Shown: positions 175 to 35,471 of the stretch, piece by piece | How positions within the stretch are numbered: the first letter of the stretch is position 1 | How the letters are laid out: the number at the start of each line of letters is the position of its first letter | From: a phage | Sequence record: PZ239914.1 | Strand: one strand, 5' to 3' | Length of the DNA stretch: 44,852 nucleotides | The notes under the pieces: model-generated | What the model saw: the letters and a program-made list of their open reading frames with translations, nothing else | What the model was told of the DNA's origin: nothing | The model's database searches: none | Position numbers and translations under genes: made by a program

Positions 175-417
175 ATGAGATCATTATTTTTCGACTACGA
201 CGGCGACCTTCGATTTTGGGTGATACTCCTCCTCATGTTTTCCGTTTGTATTTGCGTACCTACCGCGGCTATTTACTACACGGAACGCTACGAATGCAAG
301 ACCGTATATGCCGAGCAAACGGGACGTAATACCCAATGGCGATACGGAGTCTGCTGGGTGGAGATGGACGGCAAATTTATTCCACGCAAAGAGATTCGCA
401 CTACGGAGATTAAATAA
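175..417 (+). CDS. hypothetical small membrane protein (80 aa)
   Basis: ATG ORF with GGAGA about 8 nt upstream; hydrophobic segment WVILLLMFSVCICVPTAAIYY. Confidence 0.5.
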   Translation: MRSLFFDYDGDLRFWVILLLMFSVCICVPTAAIYYTERYECKTVYAEQTGRNTQWRYGVCWVEMDGKFIPRKEIRTTEIK

Positions 418-876
418 ATGAAAATTTTACAAGAAGAGAAAAATTACTGGGCCGCGCAATGCCTCGAAGCCCGCGAACAGGTCGAACGTGTTAGCGCGCT
501 GGCAGACACCTACCTTGCGAGCTATGAAGGCGAGGAGAAGGCGCGCAAGGAATTAGAGGAGCGCTTCGATCTGCTGTATGAGTTGATGGGTATTATGCAG
601 CGCACCGGATACACCACCACCGTCGCGCTAAACCGCATCACTGCCGAAGGTCTGCGCGAGCATTGCAAACGTGCCGAGGAGTACGTGCGCCCCAAAGGTC
701 GCCAGTCTAAGATCGACCGGAAAGACCTGGTGCTTATGGCGTGGCGCGCAAACGGTAGCTACTACTCCGATTGCCGACCGCTTAGCGTCGAGGGCGCAAA
801 GCGCCTGCAACGCGTTCTAAACAGTGGTAAGAAAATTGCCCTGTACGCGATAGATCAAGATCATGCAGAAGAGTGA
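418..876 (+). CDS. hypothetical protein (152 aa)
   Basis: ATG immediately after the upstream stop with GGAG upstream; charged coiled-coil-like N-terminus; no recognised motif. Confidence 0.55.
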   Translation: MKILQEEKNYWAAQCLEAREQVERVSALADTYLASYEGEEKARKELEERFDLLYELMGIMQRTGYTTTVALNRITAEGLREHCKRAEEYVRPKGRQSKIDRKDLVLMAWRANGSYYSDCRPLSVEGAKRLQRVLNSGKKIALYAIDQDHAEE

Positions 877-1553: not shown

Positions 1554-2020
1554 AATTACTGATTTGCGATTTGGATGGCGTTATTAACGGCTCAAGTGAT
1601 GCGCGCGCCGACCTGGTGCCGGGTATAAAAACCAAATCCACCTTTTGGGCAAAGTGGCACAAAGCGCACGTACGCGAAGACCTGAACATGGATATGCTGC
1701 CGCTGCTGCGTATGTATGAAGAGCAAGGCTTCAAGATTGCGTATCTGACAAACCGGCAGCGCGAATGTTGGGAAACCACCGCCGAGCAACTGGAAGTATT
1801 CCCGAACGGCCGGTTGTTCATGCGCCATATGCAGGACGACACCCCGCCGCCCGAGTTTAAGGCGTGCGCCGTGTTCAAAATGGTCTGCTATGCGGACGTG
1901 TCCGAACTGGTCATCATTGAAGACTGTCCGAAGAACATAGCGGCAATTCGTCGGGCGTGTAGCGATTTGGTCCCGAAAATTTACGCAATAAATGTTGCGA
2001 AATTTACTTGCAACCAATAG
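1550..2020 (+). CDS. HAD-superfamily hydrolase/phosphatase-like protein
   Basis: N-terminal LICDLDGVI matches HAD motif I (DxDG); GAGAG RBS upstream. Confidence 0.55.
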   Translation: MKLLICDLDGVINGSSDARADLVPGIKTKSTFWAKWHKAHVREDLNMDMLPLLRMYEEQGFKIAYLTNRQRECWETTAEQLEVFPNGRLFMRHMQDDTPPPEFKACAVFKMVCYADVSELVIIEDCPKNIAAIRRACSDLVPKIYAINVAKFTCNQ

Positions 2021-2037
2021 GTTGGTTGCACTATAGT
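2008..2037 (+). promoter_or_regulatory. candidate sigma70-type promoter (TTGCAA-18-TATAGT) overlapping an inverted TTGCAACCAA/TTGGTTGCA pair
   Basis: -35 TTGCAA 2008-2013, -10 TATAGT 2032-2037; inverted 9-mers at 2008-2017 and 2022-2030. Confidence 0.4.
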
Positions 2038-2082
2038 TAACGCGTCGGGGCAATACGGCCCCACGCTAAAAAGGACCACATA

Positions 2083-2637
2083 ATGAAAGCATACGAATAC
2101 TGCAAAAACGCCGCCACCACTATGGAACAGCGCGGGAAAGAAAACGGCTATGACAACGCGAAAGAAGAACGCAGCGCTAAACAAATCGCTGCCGTGTTTA
2201 ACGCGCTTACCGGTCGCGACCTTACCGAGCAGGAAGCCTGGACCTTCCTGATCTGCCTGAAGCTGGTACGCCAGCACCGCAAGCACCAGGAAGACAATAT
2301 TGTTGACCTGGTAGCATATGCCGCACTGCTGGGCGAGTCTCACATGACCGTGCATGACGAGATTCAGATCGATACAACGGCAGAACAGTTTGAAAGTCTC
2401 AAAGGCCTGTCCGTGCGTCTCGACGGTGAGATTAATGCGTATAACAGCGCAATTCGCGTTGCGGAGGACACGATAGCCTCGTTCGGCAAGACTGTTAAGG
2501 CCCGCGATTTTGGGTGTGTAGCCCAGGACGTCCAGCCTATGGTCGTGCTCACCGGTGAAGACGGATCGAAAATCTGCATGACGCAGGAAGATTTCCGCAA
2601 CATGGAAAAAACACTGGTGACTGGCGCACTTAAATAA
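2083..2637 (+). CDS. hypothetical protein (184 aa)
   Basis: ATG with AAAGGA RBS; preceded by a GC hairpin and AGGACCACA leader; no recognised catalytic motif. Confidence 0.6.
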   Translation: MKAYEYCKNAATTMEQRGKENGYDNAKEERSAKQIAAVFNALTGRDLTEQEAWTFLICLKLVRQHRKHQEDNIVDLVAYAALLGESHMTVHDEIQIDTTAEQFESLKGLSVRLDGEINAYNSAIRVAEDTIASFGKTVKARDFGCVAQDVQPMVVLTGEDGSKICMTQEDFRNMEKTLVTGALK

Positions 2638-2679
2638 TTCTAATCGCGGGCTTCGGCCCGCATCAATGAGGACCACACG

Positions 2680-3249
2680 ATGTACGGCGAATATGAAATA
2701 TCTGGTAAACAATTCCACCTGGCGGCAATGATAGCAAGCATCGAGTTTGACCAGTGGCGCTTAAAGTCCGACGCGTGCAAGCAAAGCCGTCTTGTTGGTG
2801 TGCTGGGCGAGATGTTTGCAGGCATGTATCTCGAAGGGCAAGCAGGAGGGCGCAGTTGTATACCGCAAGGCTTGCTTATGCGTACGGGCCTGTTTAGCGC
2901 CAATACCATTGACCGCGGCGATATCATCATGGTCGGCAAGCGCAAGGTAAAGTCCGGCCCCGACTTCCGCGAGCATGTGATCGATGCCGTATGGACCTAC
3001 GAAGTTAAGGCCACCAGCGGCATCCGTCGCGGACTGGTAGAGGCGCGTTGCGCTCGCGAGTATCTTGCCCGTCGAGTTGCAGGTGTTATCCTGGTAAGCG
3101 TAGCGTTCGGGCAGCATAACGCGCACGGCGTGATTGAGGATATCGCAGAGCCATACGTGATTGTTAATGACTGGCCCTTAGTGGAAGTGGATGGAAAGGA
3201 GTATTACGAAAGCCCGCTGGTGCGTCGCAAGATAGAAAACGGGGCATAA
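2680..3249 (+). CDS. hypothetical protein (189 aa)
   Basis: ATG with GAGGA RBS; preceded by the GCGGGC-UUCG-GCCCGC hairpin and AGGACCACA leader. Confidence 0.6.
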   Translation: MYGEYEISGKQFHLAAMIASIEFDQWRLKSDACKQSRLVGVLGEMFAGMYLEGQAGGRSCIPQGLLMRTGLFSANTIDRGDIIMVGKRKVKSGPDFREHVIDAVWTYEVKATSGIRRGLVEARCAREYLARRVAGVILVSVAFGQHNAHGVIEDIAEPYVIVNDWPLVEVDGKEYYESPLVRRKIENGA

Positions 3250-3283: not shown

Positions 3284-4900
3284 CTACTCCCCGGACTCAG
3301 GCATCTCAACTCGCATATCAATCCATCGCCCCGCCGGTATATCTACGGGGTCCATATCCGCCACGCCTTCCACGATGTTTCTTGCAAATTCCGGAACTCC
3401 TGTGTGTTCCCGGTGGAACGTTTTAACAATTATGTCCCCGGTATCCAGAACCTTAAAGTCCACCCACAACAACGGCAACCCGTTGTTGTTACTCGGAATT
3501 GTAAAACCACCATCAACCCCTCCCCAGGCCGGATCCGAGTTAAACCCTAACACTCCGGATACCTTATACACGCCCGTATCGATCCGCTCGCTCTTCACAC
3601 CTTCTGCCTCCTTGTTAAGCTCCGCGGTTCCGTCGCCACGCAACTTAACGATAGGAGACGCGGGCTTAAGGTTGCCGTTAGTGTCAATGGTGGTGTTGGC
3701 GACTGAGTAGAATTTTCCCGCAGGGCCGACAAGGGTGCCGTTGTTGTACATTACCCATATCCTTCCATATGTCGCATGGTCGACAGCCCCGAATACGAAC
3801 CCGGATGTATCGGGGTTTAAATCCGGACTTGCGAGCGCCCCCCATGAAAAATCAATGGTCCAGTTTGTTGTGGAGGCGCTAACCTGGCTATGTTTCGCCA
3901 CGGAGTCCGGGGCCAATGACACTACCGACTTATACCCGAAATCCGCCACGCCCACGTTAGTTCCGGCGGATAATCGTGTAGTGTATTTATTTTGGGTGCT
4001 CCCAACCTCGACTAGGTCGCCGGCCCCGACTCCAACGTTACGCGTTGCCGCTGAGCCAAGCCCCATATTCGTACGGGCTGCGGCCTTGTTGGCAACGTCT
4101 GCCAGGTTCTGCGACGTCTTCATGAATTGCGCAGGGTTGATCGAGTTTTTGAATCCTTCGGCTTCGTCGCGGTATCCCAACGCGGCATCACGGGCGGTTT
4201 GCGCGTCTGTCTTCGCCGCGTTGGATTCGTCGCGAATAACGCCGGTATCCGTCTTAATCTGGTTGGTCTGGTCCTTGATGGCCTGCGTATCAGATTTAAG
4301 CTGATCGGTTTGCGTCTTGATTGTATTGGTGGCGTCGTGGATCGCCTGCGTATCAGCCTTAATCTGGTTGGTGGCGTCGCGAATACCAGCCGTCTCGGTC
4401 TTGAAGCCTTCTGCCTCATTGCGAAATCCTTGCGCAGCTGCTTCCGATGCGGCGGCTTGCTGTTGCAGGTTGCGCATCTCAACAGGGTCGATCTGCTTCA
4501 TTAGCTGCGACAGATAGCCCCATGACATGCCCTGCATAACCAGCCCGTTAGGTAACGTCACTGTGACTTCTTCAGCGTCGCCGAAGATTGCACGCCAGTT
4601 GTTTTCATCCGCGATCATCAAGCGTAATGCCTTCTGTGCCTGGACGGTTACGCCCATCGTTGCCAGCGACATGGTATCGCGCTTAACGCCATCCCACGCG
4701 AGGCCGGTTGCCGTTGGGCCGTCGAACGGCAGAACCAGAGTAAGCGACGTGTCGCTTTCAATGGACGCGATTGCCACGGTGTAGGGGACTTGTCCTACAA
4801 CCAGCGTTAAGAAGTCGCCAGCGTTAAACGCGGTAAACGTCGTGCCAACCCCTACAACCGCCTTGCTGTTGTTCGTTACGGATAGAGTACCCGCTGCCAT
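3284..4900 (-). CDS. side tail fiber protein with coiled-coil repeat region
   Basis: 538 aa from the ATG at 4900 (GAGGA RBS); repeated D-x-T-N-x-I-K-x-D-T-Q-A-I units; Gly/Thr-rich C-terminal region; adjacent to the J homologue. Confidence 0.7.
   Translation of the reverse strand: MAAGTLSVTNNSKAVVGVGTTFTAFNAGDFLTLVVGQVPYTVAIASIESDTSLTLVLPFDGPTATGLAWDGVKRDTMSLATMGVTVQAQKALRLMIADENNWRAIFGDAEEVTVTLPNGLVMQGMSWGYLSQLMKQIDPVEMRNLQQQAAASEAAAQGFRNEAEGFKTETAGIRDATNQIKADTQAIHDATNTIKTQTDQLKSDTQAIKDQTNQIKTDTGVIRDESNAAKTDAQTARDAALGYRDEAEGFKNSINPAQFMKTSQNLADVANKAAARTNMGLGSAATRNVGVGAGDLVEVGSTQNKYTTRLSAGTNVGVADFGYKSVVSLAPDSVAKHSQVSASTTNWTIDFSWGALASPDLNPDTSGFVFGAVDHATYGRIWVMYNNGTLVGPAGKFYSVANTTIDTNGNLKPASPIVKLRGDGTAELNKEAEGVKSERIDTGVYKVSGVLGFNSDPAWGGVDGGFTIPSNNNGLPLLWVDFKVLDTGDIIVKTFHREHTGVPEFARNIVEGVADMDPVDIPAGRWIDMRVEMPESGE
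4150..4400 (-). repeat. in-frame degenerate tandem repeats inside the tail fiber gene
   Basis: Repeated ctgcgtatcag...ttaa..ctg.t.ggt DNA units encoding IRDATNQIKADTQAIHDATNTIKTQTDQLKSDTQAIKDQTNQIKTDTGVI; approximate boundaries. Confidence 0.5.
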
Positions 4901-4921
4901 AGCTAAATCCTCATAAATTGG

Positions 4922-4950
4922 TTGCATTCTTGATCGAGCGGTGTAATACT
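4922..4950 (+). promoter_or_regulatory. candidate sigma70-type promoter (TTGCAT-17-extended -10 TGtAATACT) for the lipoprotein gene
   Basis: ATTGGTTGCA at 4917-4926 overlaps the -35; an 80-bp divergent region separates the tail fiber start (4900) from the lipoprotein start (4981). Confidence 0.4.
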
Positions 4951-4980
4951 GAAACTCGACCAAATATAGGAGATGATACC

Positions 4981-5202
4981 ATGAAAACTTTAATTATGAT
5001 TTGTGCGGTTCTGTTGGCTGGTTGTGCTGTAGAACGCAACAACGGCGATTGCATTACGGTTGCCTACGGTAGCTGCATGTTGCGCTACGTCGACGGGAAG
5101 AAAGTGCCAGCCGGAGATGTGGATATGCGCTTCACTGGTCTGTCTGCCGATAGTGACGGCAACTTCTCGGGTACGGTATCAGTTAAATCGCGGGAGTGGT
5201 AA
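4981..5202 (+). CDS. small lipoprotein (73 aa), candidate superinfection-exclusion factor
   Basis: MKTLIMICAVLLAGC signal peptide with lipobox L-A-G-C; GGAGA RBS; own promoter; opposite strand to the flanking tail genes. Confidence 0.6.
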   Translation: MKTLIMICAVLLAGCAVERNNGDCITVAYGSCMLRYVDGKKVPAGDVDMRFTGLSADSDGNFSGTVSVKSREW

Positions 5203-5204
5203 TA

Positions 5205-6170
5205 ATGGGCGCTGGAGTACTTATCGACTACAACGACGGGCGACCGGTTATGGAGATAACCGCCGGGCTACGCGCGCCGTCATTCTGTACATCATTCTAT
5301 CAGCGCTGCCAGTCTGATAAGACGCTAACTATTAACACTCCGCTAACGCCGGGGTCGGATCTGGTCGTCGTGCTCACAAGTCCCGTTGAAGTGATGGAAG
5401 TCTTCGACCAGACACTGGTCTTGCCAGATCCGTTTTACATAACGTCAATACAGCGTAACGGGGATAGCGGAATAACCTTGCGCGGTGAGGACGCGTTTAA
5501 CGCATATAGCGGGCTTCCATCATGGGGCGGGGTGATTATGGAAGTGCTGCCGGTGGGGTCGCGCAATGCGGGCTTACTGGTGGCGAACTCGACTGACTTT
5601 ACCGCGATATCGAACGTATCCCGGCTTATGACCTGCCGATATGCGCAGCGCGTGTGGGTGAACGGAAGTATGCCATTACCGGTAAGCGGTGTCCCGTTCG
5701 CGCGCTGGGACGACGGAAACGTGTCTGTCGGCTTCGATGGCGGAAGTATTATCGTCCGTAATGCATCCTATGGCGGGATTGACGACGTAGGCGCGGCTGT
5801 TGAAATGGACTTGGTTATATTCAACAATACGCCGCCCACCCCTGGAAACGGCATCACCATGACAAACAACCAGGGGCAGGTCACGTTCTCTACCGTGAAT
5901 AAGCCGTTTGTTATCAATTCCGTTATTAATATCAGCACTGGTGGTAAGAATATCGGTAACAGCCTCGTACAGCTTTCATATACCGGCGCGCTTATTGAGA
6001 ACAACAGCGGATACAACCACGTGAGAATGAATGGGATACGCATGGCAGGCAACGTGGTTAGCGCGGCACGAAATCGCGTGATTGGTAACTACTCACGGCA
6101 GCAATTCCAGATGCCTAACCGCAACATAACCGTACCCACACCGTTACTCGTCATCCCTAACATGTATTAA
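5205..6170 (+). CDS. hypothetical protein (321 aa) co-transcribed with the lipoprotein
   Basis: ATG 3 nt after the lipoprotein stop; Gly/Asn/Thr-rich; no recognised motif. Confidence 0.5.
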   Translation: MGAGVLIDYNDGRPVMEITAGLRAPSFCTSFYQRCQSDKTLTINTPLTPGSDLVVVLTSPVEVMEVFDQTLVLPDPFYITSIQRNGDSGITLRGEDAFNAYSGLPSWGGVIMEVLPVGSRNAGLLVANSTDFTAISNVSRLMTCRYAQRVWVNGSMPLPVSGVPFARWDDGNVSVGFDGGSIIVRNASYGGIDDVGAAVEMDLVIFNNTPPTPGNGITMTNNQGQVTFSTVNKPFVINSVINISTGGKNIGNSLVQLSYTGALIENNSGYNHVRMNGIRMAGNVVSAARNRVIGNYSRQQFQMPNRNITVPTPLLVIPNMY

Positions 6171-20204: not shown

Positions 20205-20909
20205 TTACTCGTCGTCGCCCATCTTAGCGATGATTTCACCTGCCTGTTTCGTAAGGTCAGTGATACCGAAGCTGTGGCCCATAGTGATTTTCGACTTCAC
20301 ATCTTCGACAACCTGCGTCGGTTTGCTAGGCGCGCCACCGGCAGGCGTACCAGCCAGGACGGATGCAAAATCGGCGTTATTACGGAACTCTTTTTCAAGC
20401 TCTTCCATAGTCAGCGCGGACGGTTTGCCATCCTGCAAGACACGCACTTTCAAGCTGCCGTCTTCGCCGTCTTCCAGCGTCAGGCGGTCCATTACGTGGC
20501 GTTGCATGATGCCCGCATTCTTACCGAACAGCTTCGACGCCAGGTCTTTGGCAGCGCTGCCGATGGTGAGATCGTGGATCTGCTTGCGGTAGGCTTCGAT
20601 TTTCCCCGATGTGTCTGCTTCGTGTTTCGCAAACTTATCTTTCCAGGACTTATCGATCGCTTCGAGGTCGCCATTCTTGCGCGCGGCGGCTTCCTCTTTC
20701 TCTTTCGCAAGGCGCTCGGCTTCGGCGCGGCGTTCAGCTTCTGCTTTCTTCTCGCTCACCAGCTTCGCGTTATTGTCTTTCAGACCCTTAATTTCCGCCT
20801 GTACTTCTTCTGCGGTCATGAACGTGGATTTATACCCATCACCATCGGCAACAAATAAAGCCTTCATGCCTTCTGACAACGCGTCATATTCTGCTTTAGT
20901 AAGTTTCAT
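20205..20909 (-). CDS. scaffolding protein
   Basis: 234 aa from the ATG at 20909 (GGGGGA RBS); highly charged helical repeats (KKAEAERRAEAERLAKEKEEAAARK); upstream of the capsid gene. Confidence 0.65.
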   Translation of the reverse strand: MKLTKAEYDALSEGMKALFVADGDGYKSTFMTAEEVQAEIKGLKDNNAKLVSEKKAEAERRAEAERLAKEKEEAAARKNGDLEAIDKSWKDKFAKHEADTSGKIEAYRKQIHDLTIGSAAKDLASKLFGKNAGIMQRHVMDRLTLEDGEDGSLKVRVLQDGKPSALTMEELEKEFRNNADFASVLAGTPAGGAPSKPTQVVEDVKSKITMGHSFGITDLTKQAGEIIAKMGDDE

Positions 20910-20998
20910 GCTATCCCCCTGGGATTGTGGCAAAGCGGGCCACCCGCTTGACTTCACGCCTTAATATTATCAGCGATAAAAATAATCGCAAAATTCGC

Positions 20999-21028
20999 TT
21001 GCATTGCGGATGTTGGTTGCAGTATATT
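20999..21028 (+). promoter_or_regulatory. candidate sigma70-type promoter (TTGCAT-18-TATATT) with two TTGGTTGCA motifs
   Basis: AT-rich upstream tract at 20961-20998; motifs at 21012-21020 and 21026-21034; drives the plus genes at 21064-22182. Confidence 0.45.
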
Positions 21029-21063
21029 GGTTGCACACCAACAGAGATATGAAGGAAAACAAA

Positions 21064-21378
21064 ATGACTAACATGACCGTAGCAACTCCAGTAGACGCCG
21101 CAATGGCCCGTTTCAATAAAGCTACCGTAGCGAATACCTTTACCTTTCACGCAATGCGTAACGCGGAAGCGCTGAATCTGTGCCAGAGCATGAATGCTTC
21201 TGAAGCGGCAAAAGCGGCGGTCAACTCCGCGACATTCGATAATCCGGCTTGCGGCCTGGTTCCGGCATCTTTCATAAACGCCCTGGTCGAAGCCTTTAAC
21301 GATTTCATGTGCGTCGATGCCGTTGAAGCTGTATGTGCCCGCTTAACTTCCACCGGTGGCAACATCAAATTCAATTAA
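21064..21378 (+). CDS. hypothetical protein (104 aa), embedded island gene 1
   Basis: ATG with GAAGGA RBS; Ala-rich; opposite strand to the surrounding structural genes. Confidence 0.55.
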   Translation: MTNMTVATPVDAAMARFNKATVANTFTFHAMRNAEALNLCQSMNASEAAKAAVNSATFDNPACGLVPASFINALVEAFNDFMCVDAVEAVCARLTSTGGNIKFN

Positions 21379-21417
21379 ACCAATCGGGGCGAAAGCCCCT
21401 AAAATGAGGACATAAAA

Positions 21418-22182
21418 ATGAGACTGACGAAAGACATTAAAAATCAGATTCTGGCTAACATCCTGCGCGACCATGAAATCGCTGTCGAAGCCAAATCCAT
21501 CATGATGGACTCTCGCGACCTTGCGTACGCCATTACGCTGGACTGTATGCCGGAAGGCATTCGCACGTTCGCAGCGCTCCGCGAGCATATCAAGGCAATC
21601 CGCGATGACCAGTCGCTGATGTACGGCGTCAGCGTCTACACCAACAAGGCGACGTATAGCTATAACACAGACCGCCCGAAAGGTATCGGCAGCGTTTACG
21701 ACGCCTCTTTCGAAATAAACGCAGGCGGCAATGTTCGCACCTTGTCATTGAGCGGCGATGGGCGACAAAACCGCGTACGTCGCGGATACTGGGACATCAA
21801 ATACATGAACAAGCTCGCGCCTGACCTCGGCGATATTGTACCCGGATACGAAGAAGAGATGCTCGCGTCAGTGTGTGAATTGGACGAGGACGGGAAAGCG
21901 CTGCCGATATATCTTCCGCGCGGTCGAGTAGACTACCCTGCGGACCATGATTTCTGTAAGCGCCTGGACCGTAACGACAAGGCCCGCCGCGAGTTGCGAG
22001 CTAAGTATGACGCGTTCAAACTAACCGTTACCGGCGTGCTGGATATGCACAATACCGATAAGAAGCTGATCAAGGCGTGGCCTGAAGTGGAACAGTTCAT
22101 TCCGCACCCTGACAAGCCGAAGTCCACGGCGGTGGCGCCGGACGTGAAGACGTTAAACGAGATTTGCGGTATTCCGCGCTAA
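21418..22182 (+). CDS. hypothetical protein (254 aa), embedded island gene 2
   Basis: ATG with GAGGA RBS; followed by a terminator hairpin; no recognised motif. Confidence 0.6.
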   Translation: MRLTKDIKNQILANILRDHEIAVEAKSIMMDSRDLAYAITLDCMPEGIRTFAALREHIKAIRDDQSLMYGVSVYTNKATYSYNTDRPKGIGSVYDASFEINAGGNVRTLSLSGDGRQNRVRRGYWDIKYMNKLAPDLGDIVPGYEEEMLASVCELDEDGKALPIYLPRGRVDYPADHDFCKRLDRNDKARRELRAKYDAFKLTVTGVLDMHNTDKKLIKAWPEVEQFIPHPDKPKSTAVAPDVKTLNEICGIPR

Positions 22183-22184
22183 CG

Positions 22185-22212
22185 AAAAGGGGGCCATTAC
22201 GGCCCCCGAATT
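22185..22212. terminator. bidirectional terminator between the island and the spanin genes
   Basis: GGGGGCC-attac-GGCCCCC hairpin flanked by A-rich and T-rich tracts. Confidence 0.55.
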
Positions 22213-22427
22213 ATTTGCTGCAACTCCAGGACCTGCGCCCTCAGCTTCGCCCCGCATTCCATATTTTTCACGTCAATCATCAAATCCTCGTCGGGGTCTG
22301 CGGACGGGTTATCGAACTTGCACGGCGGTCGCAGTGCCGACTCCGTTAGCGGCATCAACGGCACGTTGCTTGATCCGCACGCGCTCAGCATCAAAACTAC
22401 AATCAGGACGGTTAGGACGCGTAACAT
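22197..22427 (-). CDS. o-spanin (Rz1-like outer membrane lipoprotein)
   Basis: Signal peptide with lipobox L-S-A-C; Pro-rich mature part; overlaps the 3' end of the i-spanin ORF in another frame. Confidence 0.65.
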   Translation of the reverse strand: MLRVLTVLIVVLMLSACGSSNVPLMPLTESALRPPCKFDNPSADPDEDLMIDVKNMECGAKLRAQVLELQQIIRGP

Positions 22428-28796: not shown

Positions 28797-28859
28797 GTGT
28801 AATACTCCTCTCGTTGATTGGTCGCAGTATGGCGTCTATGTTGGTTGCAAGTCAAGCAA

Positions 28860-31524: not shown

Positions 31525-31790
31525 TTTGCCAGTCTCCAGTGTTTGCCTACCCGCTCAATGGCGGGCTTTCGGCGTAATGTAATACGGATCCCCATTGGTT
31601 GCAAGGAAGTCCGCACCCTGAAATCGTGTTGTGCTGCGAACTGGTGCAAGTAGCGAGTCTGCGTCAACGGCTTCACGTCATCGCGATAGCACCAGAACAC
31701 TGATTCGCCCGCATTCGCATTCCTAGCCCATATTCGTATGCAATGCAGTGGAATATGCCACGAAAGCTGTTTCGCTCGTCTACGGCCCAT
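31521..31790 (-). CDS. hypothetical basic protein (89 aa)
   Basis: AAGGGG RBS; contains a TTGGTTGCA copy at 31594-31603. Confidence 0.35.
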   Translation of the reverse strand: MGRRRAKQLSWHIPLHCIRIWARNANAGESVFWCYRDDVKPLTQTRYLHQFAAQHDFRVRTSLQPMGIRITLRRKPAIERVGKHWRLAK

Positions 31791-32126: not shown

Positions 32127-32154
32127 TGTTCAGTCCTCCGGTTGGTGTGCAACC

Positions 32155-32183
32155 AAAATATCAGGGTGCCAGGCTGAATGCAA
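32155..32183 (-). promoter_or_regulatory. candidate sigma70-type promoter (TTGCAT-17-TATTTT) with two TTGGTTGCA motifs
   Basis: Minus-strand motifs at 32148-32156 and 32179-32188. Confidence 0.4.
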
Positions 32184-32338
32184 CCAATATTAATCACGCG
32201 CATGAAAAAGTTGATCGCTATCTGCTGCAACTGCAAACTGCATTTTCTGCCCACCATTCAGCAACTCGCATTGGTTGCCTAGTTCATCCGCGACCGCACT
32301 TCGCATCATGCTGCCGTGTATTTTGCAATCCCCGGATT

Positions 32339-34935: not shown

Positions 34936-35265
34936 TTACTTAGAAGTTTTATTATTGCGTACCCAGGAGCGCACTGTGCTCTGATTAATTCCGGTCAACT
35001 CGGCGATCATTGCCCAGGACTTTCCCTCATTGCGCAAACGGATAACCTGCTTTTTGTATTCTTCCATTTCTTCATTGTGTTTTTGCAGCTTGCTCGCTGC
35101 CGTACCGTTGAGCAATTCCAGCCTGGCGCGTAATTCTTTTTCGGCACTGCGCAGACGTTCGATTTCAAATAACACCGCCCCCACGGCATCTGTATAAGCC
35201 CATGACCGGCTTGTCTCACTGCAAACAGTCTTCGTTAACATTTCGATTGCGTCGTTTACATTCAT
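34936..35265 (-). CDS. HTH DNA-binding protein (109 aa)
   Basis: C-terminal HTH-like KSWAMIAELTGINQSTVRSWV; coiled-coil N-terminus; GAGGG RBS; first gene of the leftward arm. Confidence 0.55.
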   Translation of the reverse strand: MNVNDAIEMLTKTVCSETSRSWAYTDAVGAVLFEIERLRSAEKELRARLELLNGTAASKLQKHNEEMEEYKKQVIRLRNEGKSWAMIAELTGINQSTVRSWVRNNKTSK

Positions 35266-35441: not shown

Positions 35442-35471
35442 TTGACACCCATCCTGCAACCAATCTATCAT
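35442..35471 (+). promoter_or_regulatory. candidate strong rightward promoter (TTGACA-18-TATCAT) with upstream T/A tract
   Basis: Perfect -35 TTGACA at 35442-35447, -10 TATCAT at 35466-35471, T9A4 tract at 35422-35434; TGCAACCAAT motif in the spacer. Confidence 0.5.

Follow-up and report, generated by a model that had tools for sequence, protein, structure and literature searches.

The 44,852-nucleotide phage sequence analysed here (record PZ239914.1, the whole of which is referred to below as the window) is that of a Dhillonvirus-type coliphage, and between its minus-strand scaffold and spanin genes it carries a small island of two plus-strand genes at 20958-22212. On balance we lean towards the reading that this island is a separately transcribed accessory unit, which combines an effector of the Nmad5 family that works by binding with an independent small rider gene, here called orfA. 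The main gene of the island has already been described in Dhillonvirus and is near-universal there; the island is an ordinary accessory unit. Matches to positions 20900-22250 come from 156 phage records, with nucleotide identities of 80-99%; nearly all of these are Escherichia phages of the genus Dhillonvirus, and the top match is phage BMA1 at 93%.

The larger gene (21418-22182, plus strand) encodes a protein of 254 amino acids that was described in an earlier note, made from the sequence alone, as lacking any recognisable motif. This is wrong, as the protein is a full-length member of Pfam family PF18757, Nmad5 (nucleotide modification associated domain 5), with an E-value of 8.6e-55, a score of 186.4 bits against a cut-off of 27 and coverage of positions 1-206 of the 206-position model; it also falls into phrog_1965 (E 6.8e-60). 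An N-terminal R-L-x-K-x-I motif and the C-terminal motifs T213-x-K215-K216-L217-x3-W221-P222-E223 and L246-N247-x3-G251-x-P253 are all present and are common to distant members of the family. In an alignment of 35 sequences L217, W221, P222, L246 and N247 are invariant, and R2, I11, G104, T213, K216, E223, P229, G251 and P253 are conserved in at least 90%. K216, which lies within the most conserved motif of the family, is encoded at 22063-22065, and the window has the wild-type lysine. An AlphaFold2 (AF2) model built from the same alignment is confident (predicted local distance difference test, pLDDT, 82.6; predicted template modelling score, pTM, 0.76) and consists of an N-terminal helical bundle, a four-stranded sheet, a lineage-specific insertion of low confidence, a long helix and the conserved C-terminal helices, and no solved structure resembling it was found. 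The isoelectric point is near neutral, and the conserved positions, namely invariant L, W, P and N and in addition a small number of G, K, E and T residues, do not form a catalytic-looking set.

As described in the earlier note, the two open reading frames (ORFs), the 104-codon orfA at 21064-21378 and the Nmad5 gene, lie on the plus strand, opposite to the flanking scaffold and spanin genes, and the flanks and the closing hairpin are likewise where that note placed them. Both are considered real plus-strand genes because homologues exist and because they are under purifying selection among Dhillonviruses, the ratio of non-synonymous to synonymous substitution (dN/dS) being 0.08-0.33 for the Nmad5 gene and 0.06-0.20 for orfA. 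Each has a good Shine-Dalgarno sequence 7 nucleotides ahead of its ATG, AAGGA at 21052-21056 for orfA (ATG at 21064) and GAGGA at 21406-21410 for Nmad5 (ATG at 21418). The neighbours on the minus strand encode the scaffold, o-spanin, i-spanin and head morphogenesis proteins, with portal and terminase beyond, and the whole minus-strand block spans from ~3.3 kb to 35.3 kb and is interrupted by just two units of plus-strand genes, of which the island is one.

The two genes' presence or absence in related phages, a check proposed in the earlier note, separates them clearly. Taking as the genus denominator the ~159 records with a scaffold protein at least 90% identical, a full-length Nmad5 occurs in ~146 (84-96% identity) and diverges faster than the flanking structural proteins, and orfA, at 90% identity or more, occurs in ~61 (~38%). 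Judged from these sequence comparisons, Nmad5 is a long-resident, near-core accessory gene and orfA the truly sporadic part. Nmad5 has also been lost in nature: phage Teewinot has an internal Nmad5 deletion (L003, 2986-3098) and lacks both island genes. Several apparently independent disruptions of Nmad5 are seen in genomes and metagenomic contigs of the genus (P0041, P0042, P0052, P0059, P0062, P0069, P0070 and Teewinot). Besides an internal deletion they include truncations and a frameshift, and in other cases orfA and Nmad5 are fused in frame (orfA::Nmad5) or the sequence from the promoter into the gene is deleted. Two records with other host names, 'Campylobacter phage A144' (MG065648.1) and 'Acinetobacter phage NJ01' (OQ221563.1), carry the Dhillonvirus Nmad5 at ~91-92%, and NJ01 has the scaffold gene as well; either the hosts named may be incorrect or there may have been contamination of the samples.

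Experimental evidence on Nmad5 comes from a study of the Tmn defence system (PMC11846954, Yamashita et al. 2025, Commun Biol). Dhillonvirus phages that escape Tmn were found to carry Lys216Glu in the Nmad5 of SM_A8 and the equivalent Lys296Glu in that of SM_S22; reverting the change restored Tmn sensitivity and introducing it gave escape (PMC11846954). Escape was seen only with the K216E/K296E protein, the wild type not inhibiting Tmn, and deletion of nmad5 from SM_S22 gave a viable phage that was still Tmn-sensitive (PMC11846954). The gene also resisted cloning and was apparently toxic to E. coli (PMC11846954). The Nmad5 of SM_S22 and SM_A8 is the same gene as that of the window, at the same position by the scaffold and capsid genes, and SM_A8, like the window, has the 104-amino-acid gene upstream. 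The window protein is 86% identical to both and represents a different allele, because nmad5 has a higher rate of divergence than the structural genes on either side. It aligns from residue 81 of the SM_S22 protein, and therefore K296 of SM_S22 corresponds to K216 of the window.

The Nmad5 of SM_S22 (PP627283) has been deposited with 334 amino acids (2006-3010 on the minus strand of L012), and its first 80 codons overlap the scaffold gene. This extension, the longer N-terminus of the published work, looks like an annotation artefact, because of that overlap and because homology to all other Nmad5 proteins starts at Met81. A fusion with orfA was considered as its origin and rejected, since SM_S22 has no orfA and the extension is an artefact of an upstream reading frame. 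The known anti-Tmn protein of these phages, ORF35 of SM_S22, which was defined by experiment, concerns the same defence system and genus but is another protein, encoded elsewhere in the genome and related to neither gene of the island. Its homologue in the window has 152 amino acids (418-876, plus strand; 85% identical), and its gene immediately precedes that of the Dam methylase (863-1348). In PHROGs the anti-Tmn family bears the label 'DNA ligase', which is probably a misannotation. Neither island protein has a match in PADLOC or shows homology to a known anti-defence or defence-associated protein there, the known anti-Tmn homologue being this other gene. Of the proposal in the earlier note that the island is host-takeover or anti-defence cargo, a role outside the virion is supported, by the viable deletion, the natural losses and the early-operon contexts described below, but no anti-defence activity of the wild-type proteins is known.

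We infer that Nmad5 is an early-type accessory protein that acts by binding and not by catalysis and is kept in the Dhillonvirus late region on a transcription unit of its own. A more specific version, which we put forward only tentatively and think more apt to fail than to hold, is that Nmad5 has no part in nucleotide modification and is instead an early effector, widespread among phages and of a fold not seen before, that binds a host or immune component through its invariant C-terminus (K-K-L-x3-W-P-E and L-N-x3-G-x-P), and that orfA is a separate anti-defence cassette moving among Dhillonvirus, Ackermannviridae and Pantoea phages. Such an effector would explain the toxicity of Nmad5, its repeated natural loss and why a single charge change suffices to neutralise Tmn, a membrane nucleoside triphosphatase (NTPase).

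The name of the family suggests something else, namely that Nmad5 is a component of a DNA base-modification pathway, that the modification protects or marks the phage DNA, and that Tmn senses the modified DNA. This explanation was adopted in the Tmn paper (PMC11846954), and it is consistent with the naming of the Pfam family for its association with nucleotide-modification genes, with the listing of Nmad5 inside the thymidine-hypermodification cassette of M6/SN1-type phages (PMC9476957) and with Bordetella phage MW2, in which Nmad5 adjoins a thymidylate-synthase-like gene in a hypermodification cluster. The Nmad5 proteins of the Pseudomonas phages M6/SN1 and of MW2 belong to the same domain family and have the same C-terminal motifs as that of the window. 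They are, however, ~190-210 amino acids long, the Dhillonvirus protein differing by an insertion of ~50 amino acids (residues ~116-165, of low model confidence), and they are clustered with a hydroxymethylase, a kinase and aGPT-Pplase, partners that the window copy lacks among the ORFs scanned. A Pfam search of the window's 20 larger ORFs, which did not extend to all small ORFs, found no hydroxymethylase, 5-hydroxymethyldeoxyuridine (5-hmdU) kinase, aGPT-Pplase, radical S-adenosylmethionine (radical-SAM) or pyridoxal phosphate (PLP) enzyme and only a Dam methylase; the set of deoxyuridine monophosphate (dUMP) hydroxymethylase, 5-hmdU DNA kinase and aGPT-Pplase that defines a thymidine-hypermodification cluster is absent from these ORFs. 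The association with nucleotide- or base-modification genes from which Nmad5 takes its name is not seen in the window. As this association is one of context and not a criterion of sequence, membership of the family stands and the implied function does not transfer.

Further evidence points the same way. Dhillonviruses, including the Nmad5-carrying Bas15, are reported to be sensitive to restriction-modification systems (PMC8594841, PMC11990801), the protein has neither an enzyme-like fold nor conserved catalytic residues, and most family members lie in replication, recombination or nin-type operons without modification genes. That deletion of nmad5 leaves Tmn sensitivity unchanged also fits poorly with a Tmn that senses a modification made by Nmad5. 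An enzymatic role for Nmad5 in DNA modification is doubtful, because this genome is without hypermodification enzymes among the scanned ORFs, and we regard the modification pathway as quite improbable here.

Nmad5 is common among phages. One scan of IMG/VR gave 223 confirmed Nmad5 loci, and scans of bacterial genomes gave 0 and 1 loci, with peptide patterns so narrow that this says little. In other phages Nmad5 is mostly found in early operons beside replication, recombination or nin-type genes, with an exonuclease, single-strand annealing or single-strand-binding (SSB) proteins, DNA polymerase A, a primase and RusA/NinB as neighbours (Klebsiella phage VLCpiS11a and contigs L019, L020, L022 and L025). 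A lone opposite-strand Nmad5 inside a structural module, as in the window, was seen in at least three further cases, Vibrio phage P23 and contigs L018 and L023. It was considered as a general rule for the family and rejected, since most copies in 15 IMG/VR clusters are co-directional with their neighbours; the arrangement is that of a recurrent minority. In Stx2a-converting phages (46 records) Nmad5 is left unannotated and is apparently split by an insertion sequence of the IS3 family, and in Stx2_716 (L006, 3322-5318) the N-terminal piece lies at 3322-3528 and the C-terminal piece at 4860-5318.

These neighbourhoods are the ground for a second alternative, which overlaps with the favoured explanation but specifies a class of target: that Nmad5 is an accessory factor of replication or recombination, such as a modulator of a host nuclease or an adaptor to the replication module. 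It would be made early, with a promoter to itself, and would lie in the head module only incidentally. Besides the loci just named, in the Stx2a phages the Nmad5 gene precedes one for a P-loop ATPase, the window has a module of the same kind with a DUF2800 nuclease, an Enc34-type SSB and PolA, and toxicity in E. coli would fit interference with host DNA metabolism. The case nevertheless comes only from gene neighbourhood. The protein is close to neutral in charge, and no fold typical of DNA binding or nuclease inhibition could be recognised in it; its gene is dispensable for plaque formation, and a connection with replication is not obvious in the case of Tmn, a membrane NTPase. We consider this alternative unlikely.

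A third alternative would make both island proteins components of head assembly or of the virion. It is suggested by their position between head-morphogenesis and scaffold genes, and the lone Nmad5 genes within the structural modules of P23, L018 and L023 are in keeping with it. The island is nevertheless on the opposite strand with its own signals, phages survive deletion of nmad5, Teewinot does without both genes and more than half of the Dhillonviruses without orfA, most Nmad5 genes elsewhere are in early operons, and PHROG gives neither protein a structural annotation. A virion role is very improbable and close to refuted.

The smaller island gene has a history of its own. orfA encodes an acidic, predicted all-helical orphan of 104 amino acids (phrog_24635, unknown function), for which searches of PDB sequences by profile, of Pfam, of NCBIfam and of PADLOC gave no match and for which the AF2 model is too poor to serve as a structure-search query (pLDDT 50.6). 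The distance from the scaffold ATG to the Nmad5 ATG is 148-149 nucleotides in phages without orfA (SM_S22, PaulFeyerabend, LM40P1 and Teewinot) and 508-513 nucleotides in those with it, and when eight Dhillonviruses are aligned, the difference appears as a cleanly bounded cassette of ~360 bp, placed after the promoter that both arrangements share and before the ribosome-binding site of Nmad5. In the window this optional cassette occupies 21044-21402 on the plus strand and comprises a ribosome-binding site, the ORF and a hairpin with a GAAA loop, GGGGC-GAAA-GCCCC, at 21386-21399 (-11.4 kcal/mol, z -2.5). The hairpin is not taken as a terminator of the island transcript because it has no plus-strand U-run. 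A GC-rich hairpin also follows the orfA homologues of an Ackermannviridae phage and of Pantoea phage AAM37.

With identities of 58-65%, homologues of orfA are encoded by coliphages of the Ackermannviridae (Aglimvirinae), by a Salmonella phage and by Pantoea phage AAM37, and no Nmad5 neighbour was present in the Ackermannviridae and Pantoea examples examined in detail. An exhaustive profile search of 1.84 billion representatives yielded only 3 real orfA clusters and added one real distant relative; another hit, P0085, was discarded as a spurious repeat protein. A metal site formed by H29, C63, C83 and C91, invariant in close homologues, was likewise rejected on finding that distant homologues lose C63 and C83. 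The earlier note had treated the two genes as a pair. A complex or a toxin and antidote was rejected from their distribution, as each gene occurs without the other and near-identical Nmad5 alleles exist with and without orfA: between SM_S22, which lacks orfA, and SM_A8, which has it, Nmad5 is nearly identical (dN 0.017). As far as sequence comparison can tell, orfA is a mobile small-gene cassette functionally independent of Nmad5, because its homologues in unrelated phages have no Nmad5 neighbour.

Transcription of the island would start from a region at 20999-21035 (plus strand), with a -35 hexamer TTGCAT (20999-21004), an 18-nucleotide spacer, a -10 hexamer TATATT (21023-21028) and a predicted start near 21035. 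The sequence is exactly that described in the earlier note. Across eight aligned Dhillonviruses, of which one shares only 62% identity in Nmad5, both the -35 and the -10 block are kept and the spacer between them is variable. The -10 hexamer is flanked by two TGGTTGCA repeats, at 21014-21021 and 21028-21035. Activity as a host sigma-70-type promoter, and the timing of the island, are inferred from these features; a literature search on transcription timing in Dhillonvirus gave nothing usable.

The AT-rich tract upstream, also described in the earlier note, is present, but its role is more likely that of a divergent promoter for the scaffold gene than of an UP element. A candidate leftward promoter for scaffold and capsid (20964-20991, minus strand) consists of TTGCGA at 20991-20986, a 16-nucleotide spacer and TAATAT at 20969-20964; it was not called by a generic scan, and its block is nearly invariant across the eight phages. 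Most likely the scaffold gene starts at ATG 20909 (MKLTK...) and not at the listed GTG 20957, because it is so annotated in relatives; its 5' leader holds a 7-bp hairpin at 20933-20949. Between the two divergent candidates, and overlapping the leftward one, is a palindrome, GCGAT-N7-ATCGC (20973-20989). In the divergent phage LM40P1 it reads GTGAT-N7-ATCAC, and this compensatory double change hints at an operator bound by a protein.

At its other end the island is closed by a hairpin at 22189-22207, between the Nmad5 stop codon and the convergent o-spanin gene, the last codons of which it overlaps. The bidirectional terminator of the earlier note is borne out, in that the hairpin is called terminator-like on both strands, at -17.1 kcal/mol each and with z-scores of -2.9 and -2.5. 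Its U-run is better on the minus strand, and the hairpin therefore probably serves to end the upstream late operon as well; it is kept in Teewinot despite the loss of both island genes.

Put together, the favoured explanation would run as follows. The island would sit at the boundary of two late operons, with packaging, portal, head-morphogenesis and spanin genes upstream and scaffold and capsid genes downstream. A sigma-70-type promoter (TTGCAT/TATATT), one of a group of similar sites in the genome, would fire rightward against the late genes; the hairpin at 22189-22207 would end the island transcript and, on the other strand, the upstream late operon, and a separate leftward promoter in the AT-rich tract would restart transcription of scaffold and capsid. 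Nmad5 would be the core cargo, a non-structural and dispensable protein that binds a component of the host, of its defences or of DNA metabolism and does not catalyse DNA modification. Its C-terminal K-K-L-x3-W-P-E region, the site of the K216E change in Tmn escape, would be the functional surface. orfA would be an unrelated, optional and horizontally mobile cassette dropped between promoter and Nmad5 and sharing the transcript.

Several observations weigh against this explanation. On the side of transcription, TTGCAT-18-TATATT was not called by a generic sigma-70 scan, its -35 agrees with the consensus at 3 of 6 positions only, and the pattern taken by itself is within what chance can give, with a match in 13 of 100 shuffles. 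A wider pattern, TTGCAD-N16-18-TAWWWT, occurs 4 times in the window against 0.31 expected, but it was picked post hoc, so that its enrichment is no independent test, and one member of the promoter-like family (99-127) is in an odd location for a promoter, with a stop codon on one side and a terminator-like hairpin on the other. The plus-strand U-run of the closing hairpin is weak. On the side of the protein, the M6/SN1 and MW2 contexts favour modification, the search for modification enzymes covered larger ORFs, a protein without a known fold may still be a new kind of enzyme, no anti-defence activity of wild-type Nmad5 is known, and the effect of K216E could be indirect.

The TGGTTGCA repeat is not confined to the island. 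This 8-mer has 12 copies in the window against 1.6 expected, a number reached in 0 of 100 shuffles, and its copies, often paired, fall in the regions 96-120, 2009-2030, 4919-4926, 21014-21035, 28842-28849, 31596-31603, 32148-32186 and 35455-35462. Most are in promoter-like sites (TTGCA[T/A/G], 16-18 nucleotides, a TA-rich hexamer) upstream of genes on the same strand. A segment GGTTGCACACCAAC, the 14 nucleotides after the -10, is common to the island promoter and to the minus strand at 32141-32154, by a promoter-like site at 32155-32183. The TGGTTGCA sites may represent a class of promoters peculiar to this phage, or they may be bound by a regulator that the phage encodes, for which the HTH protein at 34936-35265 would be a candidate. 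The other plus-strand gene within the minus-strand block (5196-6170, in a plus-strand region at 4919-6170) encodes a DUF6453 protein, phrog_1265 'moron membrane protein', and is preceded by a promoter-like site of the same TGGTTGCAT type. Just downstream of a TGGTTGCA pair and hairpin is an ORF of 80 codons (175-417, plus strand) with one predicted membrane helix; it lies within a stretch of ~240 bp that is missing from SM_S22, a second optional slot for a small gene like that of orfA.

The name Nmad5 implies a function at odds with most of the genomic contexts of the family, and if Nmad5 is a binding effector and not an enzyme, many annotations would need changing and the K216E escape would gain a mechanism, in which an immune sensor and the phage protein that it touches meet in an altered way. 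Among coliphages, Dhillonviruses are candidates for therapy, and nmad5 gives genetic access in them to Tmn, a defence that is poorly understood; the window combines the Tmn-sensitive K216 allele with a homologue of anti-Tmn. The slot upstream of Nmad5 is, in addition, a place where small accessory genes are gained and lost.

Morons are autonomous units of promoter, gene and terminator between the late genes of lambdoid and other tailed phages. Classical morons are sporadic, are often of different base composition and often serve the lysogen. The moron-like architecture claimed in the earlier note holds to the extent that the island stands apart on the opposite strand, where two operons meet, and has signals of its own; it does not hold in the sense of sporadic cargo, since Nmad5 is present in most of the genus. 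The island resembles a moron in having a promoter-like site (conserved in eight phages, with 3-5 similar sites in the genome, and passed over by the generic scan), in having its own terminator in the 22189-22207 hairpin, and in being dispensable, situated between late operons and not part of the virion. Unlike classical morons, it belongs to a virulent phage, its Nmad5 gene is nearly genus-universal, with only weak presence/absence variation at the site, and the GC content of that gene (0.544) equals the mean of the window (0.547). The orfA cassette (GC 0.508 for the gene) is moron-like in its presence/absence polymorphism at one and the same site and in its occurrence in unrelated phages.

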